Assembly (NCBI GenBank): GCA_964370795.1
Contig: CAYJME010000002.1
Location: forward strand, 9,220-58,309
Source: an uncultured candidatus Brocadiaceae bacterium
GTDB taxonomy: Bacteria; Planctomycetota; Brocadiia; Brocadiales; Brocadiaceae
Reading direction: 5' to 3'
Length of the DNA stretch: 49,090 bases
Shown: positions 28,552-48,830 of the stretch, piece by piece
How the letters are laid out: each line of letters starts with the position of its first letter
How positions within the stretch are numbered: the first letter of the stretch is position 1
The notes under the pieces: model-generated
Seen by the model: the letters and a program-made list of their open reading frames with translations, nothing else
Told to the model about the DNA's origin: nothing
The model's database searches: none
Translations under genes and position numbers: made by a program

Positions 28552-28874
28552 ATAGGGATAAACTACCCGCGCTACAATTTGTATTGAAATTTCTAAAATG
28601 TTAAACAAATCATTTCCTGCCATATTGACACTTAACATGTAAACATTCAGGAAGGGATACTGTCATAGTGACATATTCAGGATTTACCCAAATACTTTCT
28701 ATTAATAATTTTGTTATAATATTTTCTATTTCATTGAGAATTAAAGGCTTAAATTTATAGAAACCACCCATGATCTCATGCTATAAAAGAACATATCGGC
28801 ATCAAGTTTGCTCAACAGACTCTCTTATCAGCATTTCTATCAAAGCAAAGAAATATTTTGGAGGAAACTTAGAT

Positions 28875-33686: not shown

Positions 33687-33948
33687 GCAGGACAAACATT
33701 CTACAAAAGTTTACAAACAGTTTTCCTCTGTACCTCAGTTTCTCAGGATTGAGTGTGCGCGGATTGTGGTTACCTCTTTTGAAAACCCATAAACCCCTTT
33801 TCTTCTTTTAATTCTCATTTTTTTGATAAAATTCACTCACTATAAGCTGCGTATTGAAAAGCATTTTATCAAATCGTGTATAAACTCCGTGACCAAAAAG
33901 TGTTTCAAAACAATTAGGCCACAACGTACTGTTGTCCTTATAGTCTAC

Positions 33949-34604
33949 TCAAATGGTTCTTCCATAATGAGGAGCTCTCATCCTTACCTTCATCTTCTCG
34001 AACAACACATTCATATCTGCGCCTTTACCCAGGATTCCATCTAGCCGCTTATTTAATATTTGCTCATTACCGGTTTTAGCAAACGCATCTGATCCGGCAA
34101 TCGCCGATTGTTGCACATAATCGCCATCTTTCGTGACAAAAAACATTGTATCTATAACCCCAGCCAGAAACTCATCTCCACGGTGGTTAATAATATTCAA
34201 CAAATGATACTTCCCCTCTCCCCATCCATAGCGAGGGGGTGTTCCAAAGGTAACAATGTCCAACTGCACCCGCCGAATTTTTTGTAAGTACGCATCAAAT
34301 TTTGAAATATCTATTCCACCCTCACTGGCAATAGTCAAAAGCCTGTCAACTCCTGGTGATTGACCTAAAAAGTTTGTCATGAGCGCAAATACCTGACCGG
34401 CATGGCTATGCCCTAATAATAACACCCGTTCTCCCAATGAGTATAAGAAGTCGTGGGTCGGGAGCTAATATATTCCTGAGGAGTAAGATCAGCTTTGACT
34501 GTACATTTAATACAAGACAAGATAATAAAAAAAACACAAAAAGAACTGTAATAATATCTCCACATATTATTTCCTTTAAACTCCATTTTAGAAATATTAT
34601 TCAT
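33949..34604 (-). pseudogene. Possible frameshifted or truncated lipoprotein alpha/beta-hydrolase (lipase-like) remnant
   Basis: ORF 34413..34604 encodes only a hydrophobic leader ending ILSC. ORF 33949..34437 is in another frame and starts at TTG, right at a nucleophile-elbow-like VLLLGHSHAGQV, followed by FGTPPRYGW. The 60-100 aa that normally precede the elbow in alpha/beta-hydrolases are missing. Confidence 0.35.
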
Positions 34605-35014
34605 GAGTTTCTGAGTTCCGGATTTAAAAAGAACGAAAAATGTCTTTACCTACAACTCCTGGCGCTCTTCCGACTTGTTCGGGTCAGGTGTTCAGCCAAA
34701 CGATTAGGACACGTGTCATTTTACAATGAAATTATTACTTTTTTTCTTTTTCATCCTCTGGCTTTTTACCAACCCCTCTCAGGTTAACGAATTTGTTTAG
34801 CAAATCAAACCAAAAAGGAGCGCCCTGGGATATTGCCAGCGAAGTAAATATTATTCCTATACTTTATACGCCCAGCCCCTTGCATCGTCTGGAAACGTTC
34901 CTGGGTCGTCCTTTAAAGCTTTAGGGTTACATCCTCCATATCAATAGAAATTTTCAAAATACATTTTAAAAAATTGTAGTATGTTGATACTTTCAGAGTT
35001 TGAGGATTCTGCCA

Positions 35015-35461
35015 CTAGCCGCTCTTTTTCTCTCTGCTAATTTTTATATGAGCCTGGTCACGTTCGAAAACTCCGGTTTCTATTAAAACAAACGTCAGCT
35101 TATACTTATATTCTTCATCTTCAAATTTTATTATTTCATTCTCAGATATTCTTCCAGTTTGCTCATAGAGTACTTGCCTTTCACCGTCATTTAGATATTT
35201 TGTTACTTTCAAACCTGTAATTTTTGTCACATTCCAAAAACGAGGCCAGAATCGCATATCGCCTACTTCTATGGTCAAATTAAAATAATCTACTTTTAAA
35301 GGTGATTTTTCCCTTATTTTCAGATGCTGGTAACTCACTAAATCATTTAATGTTTTTTCCAAAGTCTTTTTACTTGCATTAAGTTCTTTTTCCCCCAATG
35401 CAGATAATTTTTTTTCACTCTTTTCCACCTCTTCTGTTGCTTTTACAGTAGCACTGCCCAT
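35015..35461 (-). CDS. Hypothetical protein (charged helical N-terminus, beta-rich C-terminal half)
   Basis: 148-aa ORF with protein-like composition, no signal peptide and no recognisable motif. The Shine-Dalgarno site is weak. It is the last ORF of the island direction-wise. Confidence 0.5.
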   Translation of the reverse strand: MGSATVKATEEVEKSEKKLSALGEKELNASKKTLEKTLNDLVSYQHLKIREKSPLKVDYFNLTIEVGDMRFWPRFWNVTKITGLKVTKYLNDGERQVLYEQTGRISENEIIKFEDEEYKYKLTFVLIETGVFERDQAHIKISREKKSG

Positions 35462-35631
35462 AACTATTAATGATTTTTCAAGTTCGTAAGTACTCTTTAT
35501 GAGAATTTTTTCTTGCTGACAGAAAGCCTTTTTGGTTTAACATTATTCCCATTCATGTTTTTCATTAAAGAATGTATCTATCTGGTCTTGCTAAACTCAT
35601 GGTTGCCATGCGTTTGTGCATTCAAAACTTA

Positions 35632-35656
35632 GGGAGCAGGTTGTAAACCTGCTCCC
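35632..35656 (-). terminator. Terminator-like hairpin, family copy 1
   Basis: GGGAGCAGG-TTGTAAA-CCTGCTCCC forms a perfect 9-bp GC-rich stem. It lies about 60 nt after the stop of ORF 35715..36890. On the minus strand it is followed by TAAGTTTTG. It is 22/25 identical to 42615-42639. Confidence 0.5.
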
Positions 35657-35714
35657 CACAAGAGTAATTTAAAATAAACACACAAACCTTTTTTCAAAGA
35701 ATAATCATATACTA

Positions 35715-36890
35715 TCATTGCTTTTCCGGAAATTTAAAACCAATATAGGTACCTGAACTGATTCCCATAAGCGCCAATAATTCTTTTGGAAATTCTGGCA
35801 TTGTAAGGACATTTAATACTGACGAAATAAAAATAATCCCAAGGACAACAGTCCAAGCTGCTATCTGGAAGCGGTAAAAGCTAATCCCATTTGCATCACT
35901 AAGTATATCTGTAAAAAATCCTTCCGAAGGCACGGAATTTACCGTAGAACTAAATCCCTGAATCTCACTCTGAACTTGATTAAGCCGAACGGTTTTTTCT
36001 GATAATTCTTTTTTAAGGTCACTTAGATTTGCAGGGGGTGGATTCGCGTTGATAGCATTATTAAGATTGGTAACTTCCGCTTGCAATTTTGCCTCTTCCA
36101 CCTGATGAGTTTTAAGCTGACCGTCTGAATCATTTCGTTTACTGAAATCAATAATCGTAGCCCCCAACATGGTGCTCGCACTAATGCCTATAAGCATAAG
36201 CACTGACGACGTAAGCGTACCATAAGCAGTCGTGACCATCCAAATAAAGACATAAGAAGCGATTACCAGGAAAAACCAGAATGCCATTTGTGTACGGGCA
36301 AGGCTAAAGGGTCTCCTGTTCTGTTTTCCCTTTCGATTATTTCCTGCGGGCTGCGTGCCAGCGTCACGCAACATATCGCTGTAAATGGCGAACATAACAA
36401 ACAGCCCAATTGAGAGACCCAAAATAACTATATAAGTCCAAAACCAATTACTAAGTATAACAGTAAGTCTGTGTTTTTTAATATCCGTCTCTAATGGTTT
36501 ATTCTCAAGCCCTACTGTAATAGCAATGTCTTTCGAGAAACCTTTTGGTTTTCCAAGTAAACTATCCCATGATTTCTCAGATTCGGGAGTACGCTTAAGG
36601 TCAAAAATAATCTGTTCATTTTTACCACCTACAAGCCTTGAAGGGATGCCTTTTATTGGATATCCATCCAGGTATAGTATAATTTTTGAAAGTTCATTTT
36701 TGGCTTCAGTTAATAATCCTGAAAGATTCTTTACCGTAATGGTAATGGAATTAGAAAGTTCACACTCCCCCACAACTTCAGTGACTCGGGGTTCAGATAT
36801 ATCCTGAGCATATACGCTATGTATAGCTATGATCCCTATTCCAAAAAACATCAGAAAATTTAAGATAAACGTGAGTTTATTCTTGTACAT
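35715..36890 (-). CDS. Polytopic membrane protein with extracytoplasmic beta-rich domain and an internal coiled-coil loop
   Basis: 391 aa with a GGAGGGA Shine-Dalgarno site. The signal or anchor helix ends VYAQD, followed by a ~120-aa domain. Three TM helices come next, then a ~75-aa heptad-like segment (QVEEAKLQAEVTNLNNAI...LSEKTVRLNQVQSEIQ), then two more TM helices. I cannot name a family. Confidence 0.75.
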   Translation of the reverse strand: MYKNKLTFILNFLMFFGIGIIAIHSVYAQDISEPRVTEVVGECELSNSITITVKNLSGLLTEAKNELSKIILYLDGYPIKGIPSRLVGGKNEQIIFDLKRTPESEKSWDSLLGKPKGFSKDIAITVGLENKPLETDIKKHRLTVILSNWFWTYIVILGLSIGLFVMFAIYSDMLRDAGTQPAGNNRKGKQNRRPFSLARTQMAFWFFLVIASYVFIWMVTTAYGTLTSSVLMLIGISASTMLGATIIDFSKRNDSDGQLKTHQVEEAKLQAEVTNLNNAINANPPPANLSDLKKELSEKTVRLNQVQSEIQGFSSTVNSVPSEGFFTDILSDANGISFYRFQIAAWTVVLGIIFISSVLNVLTMPEFPKELLALMGISSGTYIGFKFPEKQ

Positions 36891-36974
36891 TATAATTCCC
36901 TCCCTGAGCTTTACACCCTGTCATCAGCGGTGTGTAGCTTCATGTAAATTTTACTATAAATTTAGTTTTTTGAA

Positions 36975-36998
36975 AAAACCCTGTAAAAATAGGGTTTT
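36975..36998 (-). terminator. Terminator-like hairpin after trypsin-like protease gene
   Basis: AAAACCCT (36975-36982) pairs with AGGGTTTT (36991-36998) around an 8-nt loop. On the minus-strand transcript the stem runs into UUUUUU. Confidence 0.45.
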
Positions 36999-37118
36999 AA
37001 AGTTGTGGGTAGGAACGAAGGATTTGCCCGCATCAAACACACCCCTAAAGCCCTTATTAGAGGGGACCTTTGCTGTTTTGGCAAAATAGTTGTCATTTCC
37101 GTATTTTATAGTTACATA

Positions 37119-38300
37119 CTATCCAATATCCTCAAAACCTTTAAAATTAAAATTCCGTCCGGGAATATACGATAATCGCAAAAAAAATGACTTCGCATCA
37201 ACGGCATACCCGTGTTGCAAATCCAGGTTATGGAGAAAATGAAAGCCCAGTAAACGGACTCCATTCCCTTTTGAAGAATTAATAAATACGGGAGAGCCAC
37301 TATCGCCTTCGACAGTTTCGACATCACCCGTATACCTATATTTCCAAACAAATCCATAATCCATTCTTGCACCACCCAAGATAGGCGGTGAAAAGAAATC
37401 CACGCCGTCCATTAAATCAATATCCAGGCACTGAGCACCATCATTACGTTCAACCCATAGTAATCCGTTGGTATTTGTATCACGAATAGCAGCGTGAATA
37501 TCTTCGCTTGTGGCAATCTTGCCATCAAACCCACGAGGCCATAAGGTTTTCTCTGAAACAAATTCTTTTGGTATTTTAAAAAGCATGGCATCAGTAATGT
37601 GACTGTTTTTCATTATGTTTGTAGGGAGAAAACTATCCGAATAAATTTTAAACCATTGTCTCCCATGAAAACCTAAGGCACGATCACCATCGGGAGATCT
37701 ATAATTACCATTGGATACATCAATAAACACGTGGCCTGCGCTCGTTGCCCAATGGGTTCTGCCATTGTCCATAACAAGAAGTGATCCAACAGTGCCGATC
37801 ATTACCTTTTCTCCATCCTTAAAAGTCCCTGTATTTTCAGACACAGTTGAACGTCCAAAACCAAACCTTCTTCCTACATCGATGCGTTCAGCCGTAGGCC
37901 AATTTTGTTTCAATGTAGTCGAAAGGCTCGGTTGACCAACTTCCACGACATCAAGCAAAACACGTATTTTACCCTCACCAGGAATACATATAACCAGATA
38001 TTTGGGGATTCTCTCTCTTCTGGACAAATTATCAGGACGACGTTTTTTGTCGACAAAAACTTTGATACAAAGTCCACCTGCAGATTTTGATAGTGGCGCA
38101 TAGCGTCTTTCTTTTTCCTTAAACTTACGACCAATTCCAAGCCCACACACTCCAGGTAATTGTGCAAACCTATGAGAAGCTGTCTGATAAGCTATTTTTA
38201 AGTCAGGATATCTCCTCAACCACATATTTATCTGCCTACCAGGACGATAGTAATTCCTTTCATCAGATTGCTTCAATGAACGTTTTTTTACTGCACACAT
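37119..38300 (-). CDS. Trypsin-fold (S1/PA clan) serine peptidase with ~160-aa N-terminal extension, no signal peptide
   Basis: 393 aa. The ordered triad contexts are TSAGH190VF, ITD237AMLFKIP and EGDS334GSPVF. The H-D and D-S spacings are 47 and 97 residues, close to chymotrypsin numbering. Its start is 13 nt after the upstream lipoprotein stop. Confidence 0.8.
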   Translation of the reverse strand: MCAVKKRSLKQSDERNYYRPGRQINMWLRRYPDLKIAYQTASHRFAQLPGVCGLGIGRKFKEKERRYAPLSKSAGGLCIKVFVDKKRRPDNLSRRERIPKYLVICIPGEGKIRVLLDVVEVGQPSLSTTLKQNWPTAERIDVGRRFGFGRSTVSENTGTFKDGEKVMIGTVGSLLVMDNGRTHWATSAGHVFIDVSNGNYRSPDGDRALGFHGRQWFKIYSDSFLPTNIMKNSHITDAMLFKIPKEFVSEKTLWPRGFDGKIATSEDIHAAIRDTNTNGLLWVERNDGAQCLDIDLMDGVDFFSPPILGGARMDYGFVWKYRYTGDVETVEGDSGSPVFINSSKGNGVRLLGFHFLHNLDLQHGYAVDAKSFFLRLSYIPGRNFNFKGFEDIG

Positions 38301-38313
38301 GCCACTTCTCGCA

Positions 38314-39810
38314 TTAGTAAAGATCGCTAATAGGTAACTGAATGATTATTACAACACCTTTGTCGGGAAATTCTACTTGTATTATTTCTTTGTTGGTAAT
38401 TTTATCCTTACCGAGCGAATTCTGTATCCACTCTTTGAATTTATCCTCTTTTTTTTCGTCTGGAGTAAGGTCGCGCGGAAGATTACCAATAGTAATTGTA
38501 GTTGTGTTTGTCTTCTTATCAGCCTTTATCCTCTCTTTAAAGACATTAGTCAATTCAGGGCTAAAATATTTATCAAGACCCGTTCTTAAAGTTTCTTCTA
38601 TCTTACCTTTTGCTTGCTCTATCGGATCTTTTCCACCATCTCCACCTGTAGTTTGTGAACCTTCAAATTCTGCAAGCCTCACTGTTGCTGGCAGGATAAA
38701 TACATCCGTCGTGGCATTAAAAGCAATCATCGTAAATGGTGGGCATGGTATAAACGCCATATCCTGACGAATCCACGGTGCTTGTGACTGCAATAGGAAT
38801 GAACTGAATGCTACATCTTCATCTGGTCCGGCAACTATACCACTATATTTTAGCCATTGTTTTATTTCGCGCGGTTTTAGAACAGGATACAAACCCGGCT
38901 GTGCAATTTTTACTTCTGCAATCTTAAAAACAAGCATATTACCCAAATAATCCTTTATTTCTTCCGGCTTAGATACACCAATTTCTCTGGCTTCCGCTCT
39001 AAAACCGGCCGGCTTTAACATCTTTGAAATTGAAGGCACAGGAGGCAAACCGGCCACGAGCGGAGCCCATGTTGTAACAATACCCGATGCAACTTCAGAG
39101 GCCTTTTCAAACTGATTTATTACATAGGGCACTAGGTTTGAATTGTCCACCTTATTAGAAAATACCTCTGCTGCCCAGCCGTTGCGGAGTTTCGTTTCTA
39201 TCTCCGCGCTACCCAATCCCGTATGCGGTTGAATAATATATTGCTCTTCGAAATCTGGCAAATATACCACATCCATACGGTCTCCAAGGCGTGTCACAGG
39301 ATCGGTGGTATTAATAAAACCTGTCTGTGCATGCAACTCGCTTGGTGGTTTCGCTTCCGGTTGTGGTTGTGGTTGTTCCTTTGGTTTTTCTCCAGTTTCT
39401 GCCCCACCGGCTGTTCCTTTTTCTTCCTTTACCCCTGCAGCAGCTTTTTGTTCATGTTCTCTGCCGGACAATGTTAAAGCAAGTGCCTGGGTAACCGATA
39501 ACTTTTCAGGTAACGCTTTTTTCAACCAAGTCGGTGCATTTTCCGGTTTATCTACCACATATCCCTTTGTACTTTCGTCATAGTGAAAACTTATGAGTGC
39601 AACCCTTTGAGCAACTGGTACTGATTGTTTTAAATGGAGAAACGGGCGCGGGAGATAATAGCGGACACCTTTCATCGAGTCAGCCTTTTTTTGCTGTTCA
39701 TCGGTCCAATTCGAGTATTGCGTTGGTGTCGGTACCTTCACGTAATCGAGACGTGCACAACCAAACATTACTAACACAAACAGTAAAAGCACAGACAAAA
39801 ACATTCGCAT
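38314..39810 (-). CDS. Large lipoprotein of unknown function with Pro/Gln/Glu/Lys-rich linker
   Basis: ATG 39810 is preceded by GAGGAGG. The leader MRMFLSVLLLFVLVMFGC is a lipoprotein-type signal ending G-C. A low-complexity KPKEQPQPQPEAKPP segment is present. About 498 aa, with no motif I can name. Confidence 0.75.
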   Translation of the reverse strand: MRMFLSVLLLFVLVMFGCARLDYVKVPTPTQYSNWTDEQQKKADSMKGVRYYLPRPFLHLKQSVPVAQRVALISFHYDESTKGYVVDKPENAPTWLKKALPEKLSVTQALALTLSGREHEQKAAAGVKEEKGTAGGAETGEKPKEQPQPQPEAKPPSELHAQTGFINTTDPVTRLGDRMDVVYLPDFEEQYIIQPHTGLGSAEIETKLRNGWAAEVFSNKVDNSNLVPYVINQFEKASEVASGIVTTWAPLVAGLPPVPSISKMLKPAGFRAEAREIGVSKPEEIKDYLGNMLVFKIAEVKIAQPGLYPVLKPREIKQWLKYSGIVAGPDEDVAFSSFLLQSQAPWIRQDMAFIPCPPFTMIAFNATTDVFILPATVRLAEFEGSQTTGGDGGKDPIEQAKGKIEETLRTGLDKYFSPELTNVFKERIKADKKTNTTTITIGNLPRDLTPDEKKEDKFKEWIQNSLGKDKITNKEIIQVEFPDKGVVIIIQLPISDLY

Positions 39811-40064
39811 AATATATACCCTCCTCACCCAAACAAGTCGGAAAAAATATCAATACCCACAAACCATTCTTTAACGTTTCAACAGCTACCATTTCTTACG
39901 ATCATGTTAATTGCTTTAAGTACAGTATCATAAATACCCTAGCACTGCAAAGCCGCAATTAAATTCTTCAGGCAAAAGAAACAACCCTCAAAGTCCTTCC
40001 CGGTCTAAAGGAGATTTCCCGTATCAAAGGGAGTGAAGGAGTATAAAACAAATGGCAAACACCG

Positions 40065-40114
40065 GCGATTACATTTTCAGGCGTTCTTTTCTTGCACCTG
40101 TCAGCGCCTATCGC
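40065..40114 (-). terminator. Possible terminator (nested GC stems) after C11 peptidase gene
   Basis: GCGAT (40065-40069) pairs with ATCGC (40110-40114), and AGGCG (40079-40083) pairs with CGCCT (40105-40109). On the minus strand this is followed by T-rich GTTTGCCATTTGTTTTAT. Confidence 0.3.
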
Positions 40115-40156
40115 GCAAGGTTCGCTGATTACCATATGTGTGGACTTAAGCATCTC

Positions 40157-41362
40157 CTATGCTTCGAATTGAGCTTCTAAGAACACTTTCCACCGTCCGT
40201 TCTTGCTGAAGGATAGATCGCTGTAATCCGGCGCATAGTCCTCCTTACGCGGAAAATAAATCGAGACTCCTTTTGCCCTCGCGACATTATTCCCGCACGT
40301 GGCATTTCGAACTACAAGACTATCCCTGTTTGCAGGATCCAGAGCATTCGTAATCTTGTTAGCGACATCCCTTACTGCTGCATTTTGAGGTATACGCTGA
40401 ATGATTTGCTTTGCGAAATCACCAAGATCAATATACTCCGGCATCTCGAATTTCTGAGCACGATCGCGTGCCAGACTAACGGCGCCAGCCACATTGCTGA
40501 GGTCAGCAAGAAGGGCATCGGCCAACTCGCTCACCAATGCTGACACAGCTTGAATTTGACTAAGATCCAAGGCAGATTGTGTGGCCGTTTCCCCCGTCTT
40601 TTGATAGTATTTCTGATATTCATCAACGATCGTCTTTGTCAAATCAGAAGGACTCATAGTTGGTTTAGCCACCAACAACTTTAAAATTGCCGCGTATGGC
40701 CAACCTGCATTAGGCTCAGTCTCCTCGGAACCAACCATGAAGTTTGCTGTTTCCTTTAACTCGTATGCAATCTCCATCATATTCATCAGACAAGCGTCAC
40801 AACCGAGGATATCGAGTTTTTGGCCGTTCGGTAGCGCATTGAGTATTCCATTACGTAGTTCCTGATTGTCAAGGTAATCGTGCGATCCGCAATCTATAGC
40901 AATAGCACGTGCTTCAGCAGGGCGGTTGTGAACCTTCAGCACGGTGGTACGGAACAGCGCACGTTTGATTCTGTTTAGCTTGGCCGCTGCTTGCGGTTTG
41001 ACTAAGCGAATGTTGGCATAATTGTAATCAGAAGGCAGATTTTCCCAACCACCGCCATGGTTCCACACATCGAGCAAGTACCGCTGTGCCGGATAATTTT
41101 TTATTCCCCACTGGATAAACTCTGTTAAAATTTTGGGATCACCGCAATTTACACCGGGTAATTTCTGAGCTACCATTAACTTCCCTTTCTCAACCCGGTA
41201 GCGGGTAGTCTCGTTTTCCTCTGTATCGAACTGGACGATAACATTCACGTCGGCTGTCGAACCAACCTGCTTCATTTCTTCCAAATCATCCTTGCCGGCA
41301 CCTTCCAAGTTGTTATCTCCTGCCATGTAAACCAGCCATGTCCATTGTGCAATTTTATTCAT
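40157..41362 (-). CDS. Clostripain-family (C11) cysteine peptidase, no signal peptide
   Basis: ATG 41362 is preceded by AAGGAG with 8-nt spacing. The C11 hallmarks are WTWLVYMAGDNNLEG, catalytic His context LLDVWNH102GGGW and Cys context LGCDAC191LMNM. Confidence 0.85.
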   Translation of the reverse strand: MNKIAQWTWLVYMAGDNNLEGAGKDDLEEMKQVGSTADVNVIVQFDTEENETTRYRVEKGKLMVAQKLPGVNCGDPKILTEFIQWGIKNYPAQRYLLDVWNHGGGWENLPSDYNYANIRLVKPQAAAKLNRIKRALFRTTVLKVHNRPAEARAIAIDCGSHDYLDNQELRNGILNALPNGQKLDILGCDACLMNMMEIAYELKETANFMVGSEETEPNAGWPYAAILKLLVAKPTMSPSDLTKTIVDEYQKYYQKTGETATQSALDLSQIQAVSALVSELADALLADLSNVAGAVSLARDRAQKFEMPEYIDLGDFAKQIIQRIPQNAAVRDVANKITNALDPANRDSLVVRNATCGNNVARAKGVSIYFPRKEDYAPDYSDLSFSKNGRWKVFLEAQFEA

Positions 41363-41428
41363 AGTAAAATTCTCCTTTTTCTGTTGAATAGGATTTAACC
41401 AAAAATGAAACATATTAAATTTAGAGGG

Positions 41429-41689
41429 TCATTGCGCCATACCACAGGTTGCTTTATACAGGGCGGTAAAATTATATATGCCGGATATTATATACAAAAC
41501 TGCTCCGATAAAAACTAACGATGCAGCTACTTTAAACCATTTTTTCCAGTTAATGATTTTTCCTAATTCTTTATCAGCTAAAAGATATTTGGGGAGCCAA
41601 TACATAACTGCACCAGACGCAAAAATGAAAAACAGAAAACCAACCCATTGTCCAATCAATAGTTCATTTGTTTTATTTTCGGCATACAA
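41429..41689 (-). CDS. Small two-TM membrane protein
   Basis: 86 aa with a TTG start 9 nt after the upstream stop. Two clear hydrophobic helices are present (WVGFLFFIFASGAVMYWL and VAASLVFIGAVLYIISGIY). No Shine-Dalgarno site, so the call is moderate. Confidence 0.5.
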   Translation of the reverse strand: MYAENKTNELLIGQWVGFLFFIFASGAVMYWLPKYLLADKELGKIINWKKWFKVAASLVFIGAVLYIISGIYNFTALYKATCGMAQ

Positions 41690-41698
41690 AGCTTGCTA

Positions 41699-42439
41699 TT
41701 AAAGTTCCTGCACATACACCTTGCCTTCTTTATACTTCTGACAGCCAATACTTTTATGCCTGCATTCAAGAACCTCTTTCATTCCTTTTAAATTTTCAAG
41801 CATATGTTCACGCAATCCTGGCTCAACGAGACCTAAAAAGTTACCTATTACAACACCACCGCCTGACGGTTCACTGTATAATTCATAAATTACTTTAACT
41901 TCATTTGTCGTGATCGGAATAAGCTCCCATTTACCATATAACTTCTCAATCCTATTATACTCAGGATCTTTCGGGACAAGATCATATGCGCTTGTGATGC
42001 TGATTGTTACCACCTTTGTTGTAATATCTTGCAATCTCGTATCACGCACAACAGAATCATATTTGCTTGTAATAAAAACCCCCTTTTTTTCTGTTTTAAA
42101 TTGTTTGACACTCTCATTTTTAGTATCATCTTCAGAAACTTTCCTTCCTTCAACACAATTATGCATCCATAAATGACTCACTTCTGTGTCTTCCAATAAT
42201 CGAATGATGCTATTTAAAGTTGTTTTAATGGTAACAACACCTTTACAATCTTGAAATTTAGCGCCTTCTACGATGCTTTTTCTGTTAAACATTTCAACTC
42301 CATTGCTATTTTCCATCGGAACTTTTTCCCACCCTGTATCTGGTTTGATCAAAAAAGGATTTTGAATTCCCTGCGCATGTGCATTTGCAGGAATAGCCAA
42401 TAAAAAAACTGCTAGTATTAAAGACCACCTTATATTCAT
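41699..42439 (-). CDS. Secreted START/SRPBCC-like (lipid-binding fold) protein
   Basis: The internal ATG at 42439 gives a Sec-type signal peptide, MNIRWSLILAVFLLAIPANAHA. The mature part resembles START domains (GWEKVPMENSNGVEMFNRK..., LLEDTEVSHLWMHNC, YGKWELIPITTNEVKVIYELYSEPSGG). The longer ORF to 42643 would read through a terminator-like hairpin. Confidence 0.55.
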   Translation of the reverse strand: MNIRWSLILAVFLLAIPANAHAQGIQNPFLIKPDTGWEKVPMENSNGVEMFNRKSIVEGAKFQDCKGVVTIKTTLNSIIRLLEDTEVSHLWMHNCVEGRKVSEDDTKNESVKQFKTEKKGVFITSKYDSVVRDTRLQDITTKVVTISITSAYDLVPKDPEYNRIEKLYGKWELIPITTNEVKVIYELYSEPSGGGVVIGNFLGLVEPGLREHMLENLKGMKEVLECRHKSIGCQKYKEGKVYVQEL

Positions 42440-42612
42440 GGACACCTTCACAAGAAAATTCCCTCCATAATTTATAGTGAATAGGTAAATTTTCACCAAA
42501 TTAGCACAATTTTTATTTTTCAAAATAGCGCGATGCATTCTAGCCACTATAAGACGAGTAATATCACTATTGCCATAAGCAACTTTTATCATATCTATGA
42601 CAGCATTAAAAT

Positions 42613-42641
42613 GCGGGAACAGGTTGCAAACCCGCTCCCGC
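42613..42641 (-). terminator. Terminator-like hairpin, family copy 2
   Basis: GCGGGAACAGG-TTGCAAA-CCCGCTCCCGC. The two mismatches are A-C on the plus strand but become G-U wobbles in a minus-strand transcript. It lies about 35 nt after the stop at 42674 and is followed on the minus strand by ATTTTAAT. Confidence 0.5.
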
Positions 42642-42673
42642 ATTGGAGCTGTACCCTTAAATATAGTTAACGT

Positions 42674-43186
42674 TTAAGCAGCAACCTTTATGGCGATATT
42701 TGCAGCAGTAATTGCAACATTAATAACTGTATCCAGAATATCTTTTGCCAGTTGACGTTGAGCAATTTCCTGATCAGCACCCTTCAGAAAATTCGATATT
42801 TGGGAAATTTCATCATCAGGAAGTAATTGAGGAATATTTTCAAATACTTCGTTTTCTGTTATTAACCCTAACGCATCTCCTAATGCAGTTCTTTGATCCT
42901 CAATATTCAATGCAGTCGCTTTAGACAATGGATGAGTACTAGATGCTGCATTAACCATTAACTCCGTAAGCGCATTATCCATTGATACAATGGCATTTCT
43001 CTTTTCTTTATTATTTGTTAAAGTTTTTGAATTAGCTTCCGAAACAAACTTTTTTAAAAGCTCAATCACAGCATTTTCATCACTTTTATCAGCTTTATTT
43101 TTATTATCTTTAATCAGTTCAAACAAATTTACAAAAATAGGTACAAGGTCTTTGCCTATTTTTATTAAGTCATTTAAATTTGACAT
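42674..43186 (-). CDS. Hypothetical all-helical protein with hydrophobic C-terminal segment
   Basis: 170 aa with an AGGAGG Shine-Dalgarno site at 7-nt spacing and no signal peptide. The C-terminus is ILDTVINVAITAANIAIKVAA. The coding sequence is very AT-rich. Confidence 0.6.
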   Translation of the reverse strand: MSNLNDLIKIGKDLVPIFVNLFELIKDNKNKADKSDENAVIELLKKFVSEANSKTLTNNKEKRNAIVSMDNALTELMVNAASSTHPLSKATALNIEDQRTALGDALGLITENEVFENIPQLLPDDEISQISNFLKGADQEIAQRQLAKDILDTVINVAITAANIAIKVAA

Positions 43187-43206
43187 GATAGTAGCCTCCT
43201 GTCTTA

Positions 43207-43866
43207 TTAGCTAACTTTTTTATATACTTTTATTAATATATCACGGGACCGTTCAATCGTTTTCTGAATCCTCTCATTTTCCTTTCTTCTTTCTTCTTCT
43301 GACCTCTTGTCAATTTGTCCAAGTTCTTCTTGTAGACTGCGGATGGCAGAAACAGTCATAACAACGCCATCAATATCAAAACTCCTAAGGACAAATTCAG
43401 CATCAGAACTACTTAAATACTTTACAATTATGTCATTGTTTTCTTTTAACGTTTTTACTGCATCTATGAGTGCTTTGTATGATTTCAATATTATTTCTTT
43501 TCTCGCTTCGTTTATTTGAATATCTGAAAGGTTTATTACCTCCTCAAGGTTGATTTCTGCTAATTTCATGGAGAGCAATCTTTGATTTCCAGTTACATTT
43601 GCATCAACTTGAAGTAAGACCTCAGCCTTCTTTAAATCACGCTCCCATGTTAGCAAATCAAGTTCACGTTTTTTGTCAGCCTTAAGCTGATCATTTAAAG
43701 AAATTTCTATATCATTTTTATTTTCCTCTAATAAATTTTTTAATTTACTGTAATATTCATCTTGCTTTTTACTTAATTCAGTCACATTTGATCTGCTCAT
43801 AGCACAACCTGTTGTCAAACTTAAGGACAGAAAAATACAGAAAATTATTATTTGTTTGACATTCAT
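43207..43866 (-). CDS. Coiled-coil lipoprotein of unknown function
   Basis: 219 aa. The leader IIIFCIFLSLSLTTGC ends G-C, and the rest is charged and heptad-like. Its ATG overlaps the upstream stop (ATGA at 43863-43866). Confidence 0.7.
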   Translation of the reverse strand: MNVKQIIIFCIFLSLSLTTGCAMSRSNVTELSKKQDEYYSKLKNLLEENKNDIEISLNDQLKADKKRELDLLTWERDLKKAEVLLQVDANVTGNQRLLSMKLAEINLEEVINLSDIQINEARKEIILKSYKALIDAVKTLKENNDIIVKYLSSSDAEFVLRSFDIDGVVMTVSAIRSLQEELGQIDKRSEEERRKENERIQKTIERSRDILIKVYKKVS

Positions 43867-44576
43867 TTTTTATTCTCCTTATCAATTTCATCGATAGCAT
43901 CAGTAATATTTTTTTGGAGTGCATTTACCTGGTCTTGTGTAGGTGACACATCAATAGCTAACCACGAATCTACTTTTCCGTGCATTACTTTCATCAAAGC
44001 TACTTGTTTTCTGAGAATTTCAAGCATAAGATGTGTCCTTTCAGCAGTATTAGCCTCATTCTCAAAAGCTGCTTTGTATATAGACTCTGTTTTTTCAACT
44101 TCTAGAGGTTTAGGAGGCAATGTAGACTTAATGGTTTTTAAATCATTGCGGCAGTGTATTAATGATGCTTTTAATTTTTCATTATCAGTAGAATTTATTT
44201 TTTCTTCCAGTCTTTTGATTTCTGCATCAAAATCTATAAATGCATAATCTATCCATGGTTGAATGTTCTTATCATAACTTAGGAATAGATTGTCAGCATT
44301 GACAGTAGTACTCGTCCCAGGAATAGCAGCCTCTATAGCTTTTTGCGCAATGCGCATCCTTCCCGTTTCAATAATACGATCCTGTTTTTGTTTGTGAAAC
44401 TGATCAAAAGATGTTTGTAGGTTAACAACTGCGTCATCAACAGCCTTAATCAGCTCTATCTGTGCCTTTGACGCATTTTTTACTTCAATAGGCGTAGCAC
44501 ATCCTTGCATCAACATCGCAGTAGCTAGCAAGCTTGGCAATGCAATGCATGAAACGTGTTGTTTTCGTCTTACCAT
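43863..44576 (-). CDS. Coiled-coil lipoprotein of unknown function
   Basis: ATG 44576 is preceded by AAGGAG at 9-nt spacing. The leader is MVRRKQHVSCIALPSLLATAMLMQGC, and the remainder is helical and charged. The ORF-track start at 44603 is a TTG. Confidence 0.7.
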   Translation of the reverse strand: MVRRKQHVSCIALPSLLATAMLMQGCATPIEVKNASKAQIELIKAVDDAVVNLQTSFDQFHKQKQDRIIETGRMRIAQKAIEAAIPGTSTTVNADNLFLSYDKNIQPWIDYAFIDFDAEIKRLEEKINSTDNEKLKASLIHCRNDLKTIKSTLPPKPLEVEKTESIYKAAFENEANTAERTHLMLEILRKQVALMKVMHGKVDSWLAIDVSPTQDQVNALQKNITDAIDEIDKENKK

Positions 44577-44663
44577 AACGTTTCTCTCCTTTAATTTATT
44601 CAAACTTGTATGAGTCCATCTATCGGTTTTGGTAGAGTTGAAAGGTTACAACTATTTCACCAT

Positions 44664-45503
44664 CTAAATAGTAAATGGCACTTGTTTCTCAAATGTACGG
44701 TTAATCTCCCCTACGCGGAAATAATTGGGCGACTGATAGGGAGGCATACGACGACCTATGGCACGCCAGAAGGCGCGATATCCCTTTCTTTTATATTTGC
44801 CTTCATTCCAAACATTCAAGAGCTTTGAGGTAAACAAACCATTAAACGTACCATCAGCAGAATATTGGTTATCCTGACAACCCGATATGAGAAGCACAGA
44901 TGCCTTTACTGCATCACTCGACTCCTTTAATTTTGCATCTTTCAATATAGGGTCATAAAACTTTTTATTATCCCTGTATACCCGTGGTGCAATTTCCAAT
45001 GGCATACACCGATATCGGGTTTCCGGGGAAGTCCCTGTCATACCGAGAGAGTTCATTATCGATCGAAAATGCACATCCTTTGTTACCGTACCGCTGTGAC
45101 AACTATCGGAAAACACTACAACGCGCACACCCTGTGCAAATTTCCCCAGTAAGGCGTAAATCTCATCGTCTACAAGTTCGCCATCGTACAAACACCACGT
45201 CTCATCCTGGGCATCGTCCTCATCGTCGTTTAAATCAGGAAGTTGACCGCCATGACCGGAATAGCTCAGCATAAAGATATCACCGGATGTTAACGTACTT
45301 GTCGCCTTATTAACCGAATCAAACATGTTTGCCCTTGTGGCTGCTTTCGTAAGGAGGGTTTTTACATCAAAACCTTTCGATTTTACAATCTCCGCCATAT
45401 CATTTGCATCATTTTCGCATGCATTCAGTTCCCCCGACCATCCACTATATTTTGCGGGATCAACTGCGTTTAAACCGATTGTTAACGCCATGCCTTTTGC
45501 CAT
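44664..45503 (-). CDS. Caspase-like (C14, orthocaspase/metacaspase-type) cysteine peptidase, single domain
   Basis: 279 aa with an AGGAGG Shine-Dalgarno site. The His context is FMLSYSGH84GG and the Cys context VVVFSDSC135HSGT. An acidic insert (LNDDEDDAQDETW) lies between them. No signal peptide. Confidence 0.9.
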   Translation of the reverse strand: MAKGMALTIGLNAVDPAKYSGWSGELNACENDANDMAEIVKSKGFDVKTLLTKAATRANMFDSVNKATSTLTSGDIFMLSYSGHGGQLPDLNDDEDDAQDETWCLYDGELVDDEIYALLGKFAQGVRVVVFSDSCHSGTVTKDVHFRSIMNSLGMTGTSPETRYRCMPLEIAPRVYRDNKKFYDPILKDAKLKESSDAVKASVLLISGCQDNQYSADGTFNGLFTSKLLNVWNEGKYKRKGYRAFWRAIGRRMPPYQSPNYFRVGEINRTFEKQVPFTI

Positions 45504-45787
45504 GTTACACCTCCTGTATTATTTTTCATGAATTTTAAGTAAAGTTTAGTATTGTTTTGTAAATACTTACTTTTTACAATTTTTTAACAACCCCTTTTAT
45601 GGTAATTTATTTACAGCTTGTTGCGTTATGCATTTTAATACTTTTTTTTAATAAAATGCAAACTATAAAACATTTGTTCGTATTATTTTTATTCCTCCTT
45701 TCCAGTACAATCTGTATTGTTTTTGATTTTTTTATTAAACAAGCTTTTTGTTACTAATTTTATAGTTACCTCTAGCAGATATCACAA

Positions 45788-48379
45788 TTAAACTATTTCT
45801 TCCAACAACTTTTCAGAAACACATTCTTTTATAATTTCACTCAAATTTACGCCAAACACCTCCGAAAATTTTCTATAAGTTTCTGCCTGTGCAAAGTAAT
45901 TGAGATGATAGACATGTTGATTTGGATCGAACGTAAAGTTGTTTCCACTATTAACGCCTCTTGGCCACGGAACTACCATTTTGTCTGTATCGACTATGAG
46001 ATCATTGGGATCGCCAAAAAAGGCATCGGCAATTCTATCAATGATATCGTCTTTGATACCGCCCTGGAGAGCACCCGTCGGCTCATAGTTTGATCCAATG
46101 GTATTGTAGGTAACCGCCCCATTCAAGATCTCGCTGCTTTGGTTCAATTTTTTAATAAAATCTGAACACGGATTCATTGCCCAAACACCAGGCACTGCAT
46201 GCGGGTCTTCTAATTTTGAAGCGGCAAACTTCACCAGCCCTCCTACAATACTAAAGAATATCTTAAACGCAATATTGGGCGTTAAAAAAAAGACATTTGT
46301 CAAAAGGTTTATCATCCGGGAAAGTGAAGTCCATTTCCCTGGATTTGCCAAATTGGTTCCCCCGGCAGGACATGCAACCATGAGCACCTTATCAACATAA
46401 CTGCAACCACCAACAATCTCCACAAAAGACCTTAATACAAGCCCACCACGGCTGTGCGTTATACAGTCGAATTTCAATCCGGTATCTAAAAGACCTTGAT
46501 TCTTTAGTTCCTCCAACATGTTATTGGCATTCTCTTCGGGAGTCTTGGATAAGGTAAAGTGGTCGTATCCCAAAATAAGGGGATAGCGATTTGTTAACGT
46601 TTCCAGGATTTTCGGCTGCACATATTCATACCCACCTGCAAGCGAACTAGCCGTACCATGAATAAAAAGAAGCGCCCTTTTGTTATCTTTCACCAAATCT
46701 TTGATACTACCCCAATCTGAGATGGGGCTGGACTGTGTAAGACTTTCGACAAAGCCTTTACGTGGGTCAATTCGTTTAAAACCTTCATTCATCACGTTTT
46801 TTTCATATGCATTTAACATGGCACAGATAGCAGCAGAACTACCATCCTGTATCCAATCTTTTGCGAATTTAAAGACGTACACCACATTACTCCACAGACC
46901 TCTTGTCGTTGTATCCTGCACCTTAAATGGAACAGTAAATGATCTAATATCTTCTTTATCACTGATTATTAAATCTTTACCATGTGGATTCTCTACATCT
47001 TTAAAGTGCCAAGTCCATACTCCATCTTCGTACGATAAGAGCACAGCCTCTTCGTCTGGATTACATCTGATCGCAAGCTGAATTGGTTTCACAGCCTCTT
47101 CAACTCCAAGCGAGCGCTGTTCATTTGGGCAAAATTCGATGGCGTGGGTCATTTGGAAATCTTTGTTTTCCAGGAAATCCAGGCATCCTGGTTGGTAAGT
47201 GTCACCCAGTGCATCACGACGCCCTTCCGAATCTTTTGATTTCGCCAATTCCGTGAAGTCTCTTACCGTCCCGACAAATTCAGACGTAGAAGGCAGGACA
47301 ATATCCCGGGAAATGGCACATTTCGAGCGTTTTGTGGAAACGAATATGCGTTTTGCGGCCTTAGAGAATATGGCAGGAGAACCTTCCTTCTTTTTCAAGT
47401 CTTGATCAGAATCGGCGGCTGGTTTCTCAGTGACAGCACAACCTTTTGCCGGATGTCCTTCTTTGTATACGAGAAGATGGCCATACTCACAGGTTGGCTC
47501 ATCCTTTAATGAAGCGGAAAGAAACCTCATAGCCCTTAATTCCTTGTTACCATTTAACTGAGGAATCTGGCTGAAAGAGTTAAACGCAAGACTATTTCTC
47601 ACTTTTGTTATAAGGTCTTGACAGGTTATCAACCCTCTCGTATCCCGTATCGTTTTACACAGGTTATACGTAAAGGCGCCGTTGTAATCATTATTGATAT
47701 TCGCGTCAACTGAGGTTTGGTCATCCATACAACCGGCTAATAATACGTGCTTCGCTTCGGCATTATTCCCGCCATCTCCGGTTTTTTTGTCCTCCTTGAT
47801 TTTAGAACCAAGACGATTAACCTTTACTGATTTACTATAACTCCTCAATGCAATATCGGCTGGCGGCTCTATAAAGCGGGGCTGCAGTTTTCTCTCCCCC
47901 ATTGGGATTCCTAATTCAGACGTTAGGAATTCAAGGTCACGGGTTGCGGTACCCGAATGGCACGAATCAAGACAAACGGTGAGATAAACCCCCTTGGGCA
48001 AGCGGTCAATGATATCGTTAAAGTCATCGTCAAGCAGGTAGGAATCCGGGTTCCTGAAATCCATATCGTATAAACACAAGATTTCGTCCATACCGTCATC
48101 CAGTTCATCGCCATTGCGGTCTTGAATCTGTGAACCATGTCCTGAAAAGTGAAATAACAGTAAATCTCCAGCCTGTACGCCGTCTAAAAGCCAATCGAAC
48201 CGATTCATCAGGTTATTCCGGGTAACCGCCTCGTCCGTAAGGGAGCGAATTTCTTCAGAGGAAAATCCATAGAAACTGGTGAGTATATCTGCCATATTGC
48301 GGACGTCATTAATACACCCATTGAGGGGCCTGACATTTTTGTATTTATTAACCCCAACTAATAATGCCTTTTTTGCCAT
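45788..48379 (-). CDS. Caspase-like (C14) domain fused to a C-terminal alpha/beta-hydrolase (lipase/esterase-like) domain
   Basis: ATG 48379 is preceded by AAGGAG at 8-nt spacing, and the TTG at 48403 is the longest ORF. The N-terminus shows LLLFHFSGHG and VCLDSCHSGT. The C-terminus shows ALLFIHGTASS and the elbow CITHSRGG (Ser codon at 46451-46453). VACPAGGT, NDLIVDTD and HVYHLNYF are further candidate hydrolase residues. Confidence 0.9.
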   Translation of the reverse strand: MAKKALLVGVNKYKNVRPLNGCINDVRNMADILTSFYGFSSEEIRSLTDEAVTRNNLMNRFDWLLDGVQAGDLLLFHFSGHGSQIQDRNGDELDDGMDEILCLYDMDFRNPDSYLLDDDFNDIIDRLPKGVYLTVCLDSCHSGTATRDLEFLTSELGIPMGERKLQPRFIEPPADIALRSYSKSVKVNRLGSKIKEDKKTGDGGNNAEAKHVLLAGCMDDQTSVDANINNDYNGAFTYNLCKTIRDTRGLITCQDLITKVRNSLAFNSFSQIPQLNGNKELRAMRFLSASLKDEPTCEYGHLLVYKEGHPAKGCAVTEKPAADSDQDLKKKEGSPAIFSKAAKRIFVSTKRSKCAISRDIVLPSTSEFVGTVRDFTELAKSKDSEGRRDALGDTYQPGCLDFLENKDFQMTHAIEFCPNEQRSLGVEEAVKPIQLAIRCNPDEEAVLLSYEDGVWTWHFKDVENPHGKDLIISDKEDIRSFTVPFKVQDTTTRGLWSNVVYVFKFAKDWIQDGSSAAICAMLNAYEKNVMNEGFKRIDPRKGFVESLTQSSPISDWGSIKDLVKDNKRALLFIHGTASSLAGGYEYVQPKILETLTNRYPLILGYDHFTLSKTPEENANNMLEELKNQGLLDTGLKFDCITHSRGGLVLRSFVEIVGGCSYVDKVLMVACPAGGTNLANPGKWTSLSRMINLLTNVFFLTPNIAFKIFFSIVGGLVKFAASKLEDPHAVPGVWAMNPCSDFIKKLNQSSEILNGAVTYNTIGSNYEPTGALQGGIKDDIIDRIADAFFGDPNDLIVDTDKMVVPWPRGVNSGNNFTFDPNQHVYHLNYFAQAETYRKFSEVFGVNLSEIIKECVSEKLLEEIV

Positions 48380-48419
48380 AGTCCTTTCTCCTTTTTTAGT
48401 CAAAAAATAGTGGATAGCT

Positions 48420-48530
48420 TCACTTACAATGACGCTTGAAATATCATTGGAAGGACAACAGTTCGAAGCAAACTCGCCTTTTCATACTTCTTGGTAACCA
48501 GTATGTTCGTAAGAGTTAAAATGTAAGTGA
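48420..48530. promoter_or_regulatory. Candidate operator dyad between wHTH-like gene and caspase-hydrolase gene
   Basis: TCACTTACA (48420-48428) and TGTAAGTGA (48522-48530) are exact reverse complements. They bracket most of the 133-bp intergenic spacer. An inner CATACT/AGTATG hairpin lies around GGTAACC (48484-48506). Confidence 0.3.
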
Positions 48531-48536
48531 CATTTT

Positions 48537-48830
48537 TTACAAATTTTTCTTTACGAACGACTTTATCTTCTCATACTCATCCCGGTTGATCTGATAATAG
48601 GTATGAACATTTTTGCCTTGCTGTTCCACCAGAAGACCTTTATCAACAAGGTCTTCAAGCGCTTCTTTTACCACATTTACCTGGTGTTTAATTTTTTGTT
48701 CCAACAACCACCATTCTATAATTCCATCAATGCTATCCCTGGCATCCGGATGTTCAACCAGGTATGACAGGATTTCATTGCAAATGTGTGACTTTTCATT
48801 ATTGTTGAGATTGTCAGGGGTGGTTTTCAC
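48537..48830 (-). CDS. Small winged-helix-like protein (putative regulator or adaptor)
   Basis: 97 aa with a GTG start after GAGAGGA. The helical N-terminal half (ICNEILSYLVEHPDARDSIDGIIEWW) and the C-terminal EALEDLVDKGLLVEQQGKNVHTYYQIN resemble the recognition helix plus wing of MarR/DUF-type wHTH proteins. Confidence 0.55.
   Translation of the reverse strand: MKTTPDNLNNNEKSHICNEILSYLVEHPDARDSIDGIIEWWLLEQKIKHQVNVVKEALEDLVDKGLLVEQQGKNVHTYYQINRDEYEKIKSFVKKNL

Follow-up and report, generated by a model that had tools for sequence, protein, structure and literature searches.

A protease-rich gene island of a Brocadiaceae bacterium reads as a patchwork of small, independently occurring cassettes

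The DNA analysed here (the window) is a stretch of 49,090 nucleotides from an uncultured Brocadiaceae bacterium, and its subject is an island of 13 consecutive open reading frames (ORFs) at 35015–48830, all on the minus strand and in one direction, numbered from O1 (35015–35461) to O13 (48537–48830). Many of the ORFs are tightly spaced (−4, 9, 13, 15, 20, 30 and 60 nt), including an ATGA overlap at 43863–43866 between the O10 stop and the O9 start, and others are separated by larger, AT-rich gaps (157, 284, 328, 228 and 253 nt). An earlier reading of this DNA (the original prediction) had described the same layout, with which our coordinates and gaps agree, and had proposed that four peptidases without signal peptides may form part of a proteolysis-driven suicide or defence module, or alternatively of an envelope-remodelling module. 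The peptidases are there: two C14 and one C11 enzyme score above the Pfam gathering cut-offs and contain the motifs quoted for them, and a fourth has a predicted trypsin fold. All four (O3, O5, O11 and O12) keep their catalytic residues, have no N-terminal hydrophobic segment by hydropathy, as had been claimed, and are predicted from these features to be active and intracellular. We then compared the locus with 30 related loci, excluding two that represent the window’s own population (L001 and L002), using all 13 proteins as tblastn queries. Scans of the loci used a four-sequence alignment; two other alignments were too divergent. The full gene set was not found in any of the 30 loci. Conservation of the gene neighbourhood was one of the checks proposed for the original prediction, with absence of synteny elsewhere as an outcome that would speak against it, and the 13 genes do not form one machine. 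They are a patchwork of small cassettes that occur independently of one another.

The window matches contig ERZ13693045 NODE_728 (140 kb), and the gene order is identical in a second assembly from the same study (L001, L002); the whole 13-gene cluster is known only from these two assemblies. Candidatus Brocadia and Brocadiaceae are the best named relatives of the island proteins, which makes the host an anammox planctomycete. As the window (41.6% G+C) carries core genes elsewhere (MnmG, RNase Y, IleRS, ResB/CcsA, adenylosuccinate lyase, two GroEL paralogues, HSP20 and Lon), it is chromosomal, and the island is bounded by a heat-shock cluster (GroEL, HSP20, Lon) on one side and by a sigma-54 activator/LysRS locus on the other. 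No flanking direct or inverted repeats indicating a mobile element were found around the island, its DNA had no match in plasmid and phage collections, and 35015–48830 contains no ATPase, nuclease, integrase or transposase, in agreement with the original prediction. Two features of the layout argue for several transcription units, namely the AT-rich long gaps and a strong terminator-like hairpin (35630–35658, minus strand, 13-bp stem) located 3′ of O2, which sets O1 apart. The codon composition of the island is a mosaic, as G+C at third codon positions (GC3) is 0.41–0.47 for O13, O12, O11 and O5, 0.20–0.31 for O10–O6 and 0.28–0.34 for O4–O1, compared with 0.39–0.53 in the remaining window.

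The array opens with O13, a 97-aa soluble protein that has no hydrophobic segment and only sub-threshold, weakly winged-helix-like matches to helix-turn-helix (HTH) families in Pfam (GntR, HTH_Cmi2_C). It is followed by O12 (45788–48379, minus strand), which starts at the ATG at 48379 and encodes 863 aa, the same form as on record. The N-terminus of O12 matches the C14 family (PF00656, 2e-35, 122.8 bits against a cut-off of 21.4, residues ~3–280) and resembles yeast metacaspase Mca1 (PDB search, E 1e-35), and the C-terminus matches the alpha/beta-hydrolase family DUF7379 (PF24096, 8e-47, 160 bits, residues ~570–746). A DUF7362 match is sub-threshold (24.3 bits against 27.6). The hydrolase part shows weak lipase/thioesterase similarity, and a PDB search with O12 returned the putative lipase 7x2p (E 0.0016). 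Across 10 diverse O12 homologues (down to 31% identity), the caspase residues H81 and C140 are invariant, as are HG574–575, the H-S643-R-G-G elbow, D793 and H825. Because of the C14 and DUF7379 matches and these invariant dyad and triad residues, we identify O12 as a metacaspase fused to a Ser-Asp-His alpha/beta-hydrolase, with both activities predicted from sequence. The second C14 protein, O11 (44664–45503, minus strand), is a stand-alone orthocaspase of 279 aa (Pfam C14, 2e-28, 100.2 bits against 21.4) that matches Geobacter sulfurreducens GSU0716 over its full length (PDB 3bij, E 4e-107). GSU0716 has no assigned function, so this match names a family and not a role. The SGHG and DSCHSG contexts are present in both the O11 and the O12 translations. 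Literature searches on DUF7379, DUF7362 and anammox metacaspases returned nothing relevant.

Orthologues of O12 (53–70% identical) were found in six independent contexts (L005–L012), and homologues of O1–O11 and O13 are absent beside them by tblastn. At two of these loci (L010 and L012) the orthologue retains the same LysRS neighbour as on the window’s contig and the genes that follow differ; the position of O12 is therefore orthologous and the downstream content variable. Other neighbours of the orthologues include a patatin, a metallophosphoesterase, a DUF900 protein and assorted lipoproteins, the last being unrelated in sequence to those of the island (hhalign found no homology between the O10, O9 and O8 proteins described below and the lipoproteins adjoining the L010 orthologue). 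At L012 (10001–17119) the O12 orthologue is split into ORFs of 756 and 108 aa. Genes for three small lipoproteins and fragments of a group II intron reverse transcriptase come next, a sign of active recombination at this spot. As a separate observation, a sigma-54 activator of the PocR type lies ~3.5 kb from the orthologue at L005 (Brocadia CP091279).

The C11 peptidase, O5 (40157–41362, minus strand, 401 aa; ORF given as 40157–41413), has a strong Pfam match (Peptidase_C11, PF03415, 8e-55, 187 bits against a cut-off of 25.8), and its translation contains the YMAGDNNLE, WNHGGGW and GCDAC motifs. We rejected an assignment as clostripain proper, for which the TIGR02806 equivalog scored 50.5 bits against a cut-off of 550; clostripain/PmC11-type enzymes share with O5 the C11 domain with its His and Cys motifs, but clostripain is secreted whereas O5 is predicted to be cytoplasmic. 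The family is widespread across phyla at 60–77% identity (1809 homologues, at least 120 of them at least 57% identical to O5), and IMG/VR contained no match. In two unrelated lineages (L027, and L029–L031 from Acidobacteriia) a C14 gene of ~600 codons lies directly 5′ of the O5-type C11 gene, with a 4-nt overlap in L029–L031, and the C14 proteins of L027 and of L029–L031 are 72% identical to each other. Their caspase domain matches an O12 profile (E 1e-32) and shares with O12 an R-x-I/L-x-PP-x-DI insert, and their N-terminal 260 residues contain VHGIGHG and AHSLGS motifs typical of alpha/beta-hydrolases. A gene pair encoding a C14 protein (with a putative hydrolase domain) and a C11 peptidase recurs across phyla, and it could be a simple bacterial two-protease cascade. 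No caspase gene was found next to distant C11 homologues of an Ammonifex plasmid and of Nonomuraea, and a literature search on C11 plus C14 neighbourhoods found nothing relevant.

This pair bears on the reading that the island is pure juxtaposition at a recombination-permissive spot, with no functional relation among its genes, O12 and O5 included. The independent distribution of the modules, the mosaic GC3 and the six other O12 loci without a C11 neighbour are what such a reading would predict. Yet a C14-C11 operon is found in two other lineages with a caspase of the same subfamily as O12, and genes for proteases, lipases and lipoproteins turn up repeatedly near orthologues of O12, so we regard pure juxtaposition as very improbable.

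Between O5 and O8 lie O7 and a small ORF, O6 (41429–41689, minus strand), a possible protein of 86 aa with two hydrophobic, potentially transmembrane segments and a TTG start, which is absent from the gene calls of the public record and is doubtful as a real gene. O7 (41699–42643, minus strand) is similar to a STAR-related lipid transfer protein (PDB 3qsz, E 4.4e-7), which supports its assignment as a START protein, and it has a weaker Pfam match to Polyketide_cyc (19.5 bits, under the 23.4-bit cut-off). A Sec-type leader, MNIRWSLILAVFLLAIPANAHA, is present only if the protein starts at M69, and M69 (at 42439) is likely the true start; O7 is accordingly listed as an exported START-domain protein with a lipid-binding fold. 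GTDB species genomes contained no relative of O7.

Upstream of O7, O10, O9 and O8 form a compact triad. O10 (43863–44603, minus strand) and O9 (43207–43866, minus strand) are helical lipoproteins in which the lipobox residues (Cys35 of O10; G20-C21 of O9) are invariant within the respective families, and O8 (42674–43186, minus strand) is a helical protein of 170 aa that has no signal peptide and carries a C-terminal hydrophobic helix conserved in the alignment. The O10 family comprises 58 representative clusters among 1.84 billion proteins. An AlphaFold model of O10 (predicted local distance difference test, pLDDT, 87) consists of long antiparallel helices in a generic helical bundle, with no specific fold match among PDB structures (best E 0.04, no functional lead); profiles of O10, O9 and O8 returned only coiled-coil noise from PDB sequences, O8 had no PDB or Pfam match, and hhalign detected no homology between O10 and O9. 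The order O10-O9 is co-linear in 13 of 14 loci, with O8 next wherever the contig reaches far enough, and the cassette is conserved from Brocadiaceae to bacteria of soil metagenomes. Elsewhere it is flanked by genes for a P-type ATPase, an amino-acid kinase, S15, PNPase, an M16 peptidase, a pentapeptide-repeat protein and DinB, and in L016 and L018 it sits among housekeeping genes; no caspase, C11 or O7 homologue lies beside the triad in 13 loci. In Candidatus Brocadia carolinensis (L014) the triad is followed by a homologue of O1 (60% identical) and then by genes for a Lipase_3 protein, a metallophosphoesterase and a phospholipase resembling Tle1 of type VI secretion systems. As O1 directly follows the triad there, the O7–O2 segment is read as an insertion or deletion. 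Two observations on individual loci may be added. In L014 (AYTS01000157.1, 1311–2718) the O10 homologue and the O9 homologue each contain a frameshift that breaks the gene in two; they are either pseudogenes or assembly errors. In an uncultured deltaproteobacterium (L013, 6098–9871) the O10 homologue is the only one without O9 and O8, and is preceded by two paralogous proteins of ~220 aa (no Pfam match for the one copy tested), a metallophosphoesterase and a small lipoprotein.

The fourth peptidase, O3 (37119–38300, minus strand, 393 aa), is paired with O4 (38314–39828, minus strand), a 504-aa lipoprotein with an MFGC lipobox and no Pfam, NCBIfam or PDB match. O3 has no match in Pfam, NCBIfam (E ≤ 0.1), PADLOC or PDB sequences (phmmer and profile searches), and it belongs to a very rare family, of which a search of 5.8 billion proteins found 10; a Brocadiaceae homologue is 82% identical to O3. 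In all 10 homologues H190, D237 and S334 are invariant, and the GDSGSP motif is present. The AlphaFold model (pLDDT 80.5, predicted template modelling score 0.84) gave 285 PDB matches at E ≤ 0.001 in Foldseek, led by NAL1, the Lysobacter L5 protease and 3C proteases. Structures of rice NAL1 were at the top (E ~2e-12, ~400 columns, TM-score ~0.52), five orders of magnitude ahead of the next classes, bacterial and viral PA proteases, and the alignment spans the N-terminal alpha/beta domain of O3 as well as both protease barrels. The original assignment of O3 as a trypsin-fold S1 enzyme therefore holds at the level of predicted fold and invariant triad, and finds no counterpart among sequence family models; on this modelling, O3 is correctly described as a PA-clan double beta-barrel protease with a conserved His-Asp-Ser triad. 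Its likeness to NAL1 is on the fold level only, as predicted by the model, and a profile of the 10 homologues retrieved neither a NAL1 chain nor any other protease from the PDB. NAL1 is a cage-forming regulatory serine protease without a signal peptide (triad H234/D291/S385; PMC12012508). NAL1 (PDB 8pmg, 7y77) and O3 align over both domains (~400 columns), both have no signal peptide, and their triads are similarly spaced (H190/D237/S334 in O3). They differ in that identity is ~15% and that O3 always has a lipoprotein partner gene. NAL1 needs a hexameric cage for an active triad. The plant-NAL1-like two-domain predicted fold may bear on the origin of the NAL1 architecture.

A homologue of O4 lies directly 5′ of the O3 homologue in L003 (37% identity, E 7e-105) and L004 (44%, E 2e-63), and neither locus contains any island gene besides this pair. 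At L003 (3042–7990) the pair stands beside a cluster encoding FecR, a cNMP-binding protein, a phosphodiesterase of metallo-beta-lactamase fold (Pfam matches Lactamase_B, PDEase_II and anti-Pycsar Apyc1) and a CHASE2-cyclase. At L004 (7901–9075) it lies ~3 kb from TPR-S, MAP3K_TRAF_bd and TIR-domain fragments. These neighbourhoods are hints of a signalling or conflict setting for the cassette. The lipoprotein O4 and O3, which has no signal, would be in different compartments, judging from their N-termini. Pairs of a trypsin with a constant partner (Trypco-trypsin) have been described in conflict systems (PMC7159879); O4-O3 resembles them in combining a trypsin-fold peptidase with a constant neighbour gene, and differs in that O4 is a 504-aa lipoprotein with no match in Pfam.

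The island ends with O2 and O1, which stand outside these cassettes. O2 (35715–36890, minus strand, 391 aa) is by hydropathy a membrane protein with a signal/anchor, an ectodomain, four transmembrane helices and a coiled coil. Of its five hydrophobic segments, those of the transmembrane module are duplicated internally, with copies of the module (S-x-x-R-x-Q, transmembrane helix, L-x-G-I-S) at residues ~196–250 and ~337–391. The second copy matches a 119-aa ORF with two transmembrane segments in another Brocadiaceae genome (pairwise E 1e-5), located two genes 3′ of the O12 orthologue (L007:12621–13344). The O2-type membrane module may regularly accompany proteins like O12. O1 is a soluble protein of 148 aa on the minus strand, with no family matches. 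The envelope-directed neighbours named in the original prediction are thereby borne out: lipoboxes are present in O10, O9 and O4, O7 has a Sec leader if it starts at M69, and O2 is a membrane protein.

Just past the right edge, where the original prediction had suggested that a sensor NTPase could lie, the extended contig encodes a 485-aa sigma-54 enhancer-binding protein on the island’s strand (about window 49482–50939). This is the ATPase found there, and it is a transcriptional activator of NtrC type (Sigma54_activat, 7.5e-65, plus a weak receiver domain), on which grounds we rejected it as a defence sensor. It matches PADLOC RtcR models over the AAA+ and HTH parts only and has no CARF domain. 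In the window and the adjoining 10 kb to its right, AAA+ proteins are limited to Lon, DNA polymerase III delta′ and this activator, and no vWA, MoxR, STAND or gasdermin protein was found within ~10 kb on either side of the island. Bacterial gasdermin systems place the gasdermin gene beside a protease, and none was matched among the island proteins by Pfam or PADLOC. The PADLOC check advised for the original prediction likewise gave no system-specific match in PADLOC-DB 2.0, only the generic ‘caspase’ model on O11 and O12. A TGGCAG-N5-TTGCT site lies 182 nt after the activator stop and ~455 nt before O13 (L001 9080–9095, about window 49285–49300); with an estimated one site of this quality expected by chance per locus of this size, it is only a lead. 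A scan for sigma-54 promoters within the island found none in the intergenic gaps, and counts with up to two mismatches were at chance level. Farther out, the contig encodes a Dabb protein, LysRS, a large radical-SAM protein, a PD-(D/E)xK protein and an N6/N4 DNA methyltransferase. We also noted an inverted repeat in the long leader 5′ of O13, ttgcttcgctttgctcgcaatgac ... gtcattgcgagggtc (L001 9190–9300, about window 49080–49190 and so mostly outside the window), which translates as ‘LRFARNDN’ and looks like a dispersed repeat similar to repetitive extragenic palindromes.

The activator and its site, directly upstream on the same strand as 13 co-directional genes with short gaps, invite the view that the island is one death or defence system under sigma-54 control, in which the lipoproteins and membrane proteins would sense a signal at the envelope and trigger a cascade of the four cytoplasmic peptidases that ends in lipase-mediated lysis. 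Lipoproteins (unrelated in sequence) and patatin or metallophosphoesterase genes also surround O12 orthologues elsewhere, the O2 membrane module recurs near the L007 orthologue, and multi-peptidase cascades have been proposed for conflict systems (PMC7159879). We nevertheless consider a single system unlikely: the set is non-syntenic in all 30 other loci, the triad and O4-O3 are found elsewhere without the other peptidases or caspases of the island, GC3 is mosaic, a strong terminator interrupts the array, PADLOC reports no defence system, chance alone would, by our estimate, yield about one equally good sigma-54-like site in such a locus, and the locus has no sensor NTPase, vWA, MoxR, STAND or gasdermin component. 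Of the original proposal of a proteolysis-driven suicide or defence module, the 13-gene unit is not supported, given the absence of synteny, and what finds support is the caspase-hydrolase theme and the C14-C11 pair.

We instead favour, as the probable reading, a composite or variable accessory island of 14 kb that consists of at least five independently inherited units, contains protease and lipase-type cassettes, and most likely has its functional core in O12 (possibly with O11) and O5. The first unit would be O13-O12, with the cytoplasmic metacaspase-hydrolase; the second O11, the GSU0716-type orthocaspase; the third O10-O9-O8, two helical lipoproteins and a helical protein without a signal; the fourth O7(-O6)-O5, an exported START protein with a C11 peptidase that is cytoplasmic and widespread; and the fifth O4-O3, a lipoprotein and a serine protease whose predicted fold resembles NAL1, with O2 and O1 as additional genes. 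Independent cassettes would accumulate beside the positionally conserved O12 gene, and O4-O3 and the triad would share this variable region as cassettes of their own. Metacaspases and C11 enzymes, both of clan CD, cut on the C-terminal side of basic residues, and proteolytic processing activates them. From this, and from the proposed release of effectors by N-terminal caspases, we infer that O12, O11 and O5 may process one another as a short clan-CD cascade, in which cleavage would free or activate the alpha/beta-hydrolase domain (lipase- or esterase-like) as a membrane-directed effector.

Several points weigh against this composite reading. Four peptidases in 13 genes are unlikely under random gene placement, and the tight co-directional layout would permit co-transcription. 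The synteny sample is a few dozen loci, and the searches of large databases for homologues left out O7, O6, O2 and O13. In the window O12 and O5 are not adjacent, with 4.4 kb between them, and C14-C11 adjacency comes from two independent lineages only, as the contig of a third locus (L032) ends 281 nt 5′ of the C11 gene. In the C14 partners, the N-terminal domain shows only motifs of the HG and G-x-S-x-G type and is not significantly similar to DUF7379 or to any hydrolase family. With hhalign, no more than 11 columns around the nucleophile elbow aligned with the DUF7379 region, so that common descent of the two as hydrolases is unproven.

Other evidence from the same genes would fit an envelope/lipid-homeostasis and proteostasis cluster with no conflict role, whose exported START protein, lipoproteins and esterase domain would act in the remodelling of membrane lipids or lipoproteins and whose cytoplasmic proteases would serve regulated protein turnover. 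O7 combines a signal peptide with the lipid-binding START fold, O10, O9 and O4 are lipoproteins, the O12 hydrolase resembles lipases and thioesterases, and the island adjoins GroEL, HSP20 and Lon. The triad stands among housekeeping genes in L016 and L018, and the 60–77% identity of O5 across phyla is as expected of a cellular function. NAL1, the best solved-structure match of the O3 model, is a regulatory and not a lytic protease (PMC12012508). Against this role, the island varies even between close relatives and has no known lipid-transport or Lol/Mla component. The patatin, Tle1-like, Lipase_3 and metallophosphoesterase genes found elsewhere around O12 are typical of effector sets, and O4-O3 of L004 lies near TIR and TPR-S fragments. 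We hold this homeostasis role to have only a small probability.

Among known systems, the island as we read it works most like the pairing of a caspase with an alpha/beta-hydrolase effector, here fused, stand-alone and possibly coupled to C11. In the VMAP ternary (vWA-MoxR) systems described by Kaur, Burroughs, Iyer and Aravind (2020), which are enriched in aggregate-forming bacteria, planctomycetes included, a caspase is always accompanied by an alpha/beta-hydrolase (PMC7159879). O12 shares this coupling, but its two domains are fused and no vWA, MoxR or VMAP component lies within ~10 kb; the VMAP, iSTAND and FtsH ternary systems combine a vWA-MoxR pair with another NTPase or a VMAP component, and none of these was found in the window or the 10 kb to its right. 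Proteins of the membrane-associated EACC1-caspase system of two genes (System 4) have a constant N-terminal caspase and a variable C-terminal effector, for which autoproteolytic release has been proposed (PMC7159879). O12 has a weak match to the corresponding NCBIfam model, caspase_w_EACC1, that stays well under threshold (NF047832, 46.2 bits against a cut-off of 140), and the 5′ gene of that system encodes EACC1 with a single transmembrane helix, whereas O13 has no transmembrane helix and no EACC1 match.

A more elaborate version would make the separate cassettes a modular toolkit: an NTPase-independent system for lysis or altruistic death in anammox bacteria, in which a sigma-54-gated O12/O11/O5 cascade, wired to the triad and O4/O3 as envelope sensors, releases a lipase-type effector. 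We rate this as quite unlikely. Anammox bacteria form dense aggregates and are industrially important, and regulated proteolytic or lipolytic self-destruction, if true, would matter for reactor stability. The main result on the composite island is corrective, in that a striking concentration of proteases is not a conserved system and so is not to be catalogued as a candidate defence operon. At the same time, the comparison exposed three conserved cassettes that are under-described, namely the C14-C11 pair, O4 with the NAL1-like O3, and the O10-O9-O8 triad.

The left side of the island shows two further features. Between Lon and O1, the 1.3-kb AT-rich stretch at 33687–35014 contains two unsupported ORFs without family matches (33949–34437, minus strand; 34437–34787, plus strand) and is probably the left boundary of the island. 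Beyond it, two divergent GroEL (Cpn60) paralogues are encoded less than 5 kb apart (24417–26036, minus strand; 28770–30512, plus strand), the second of which clusters with HSP20 and Lon in the group of genes that abuts the island.

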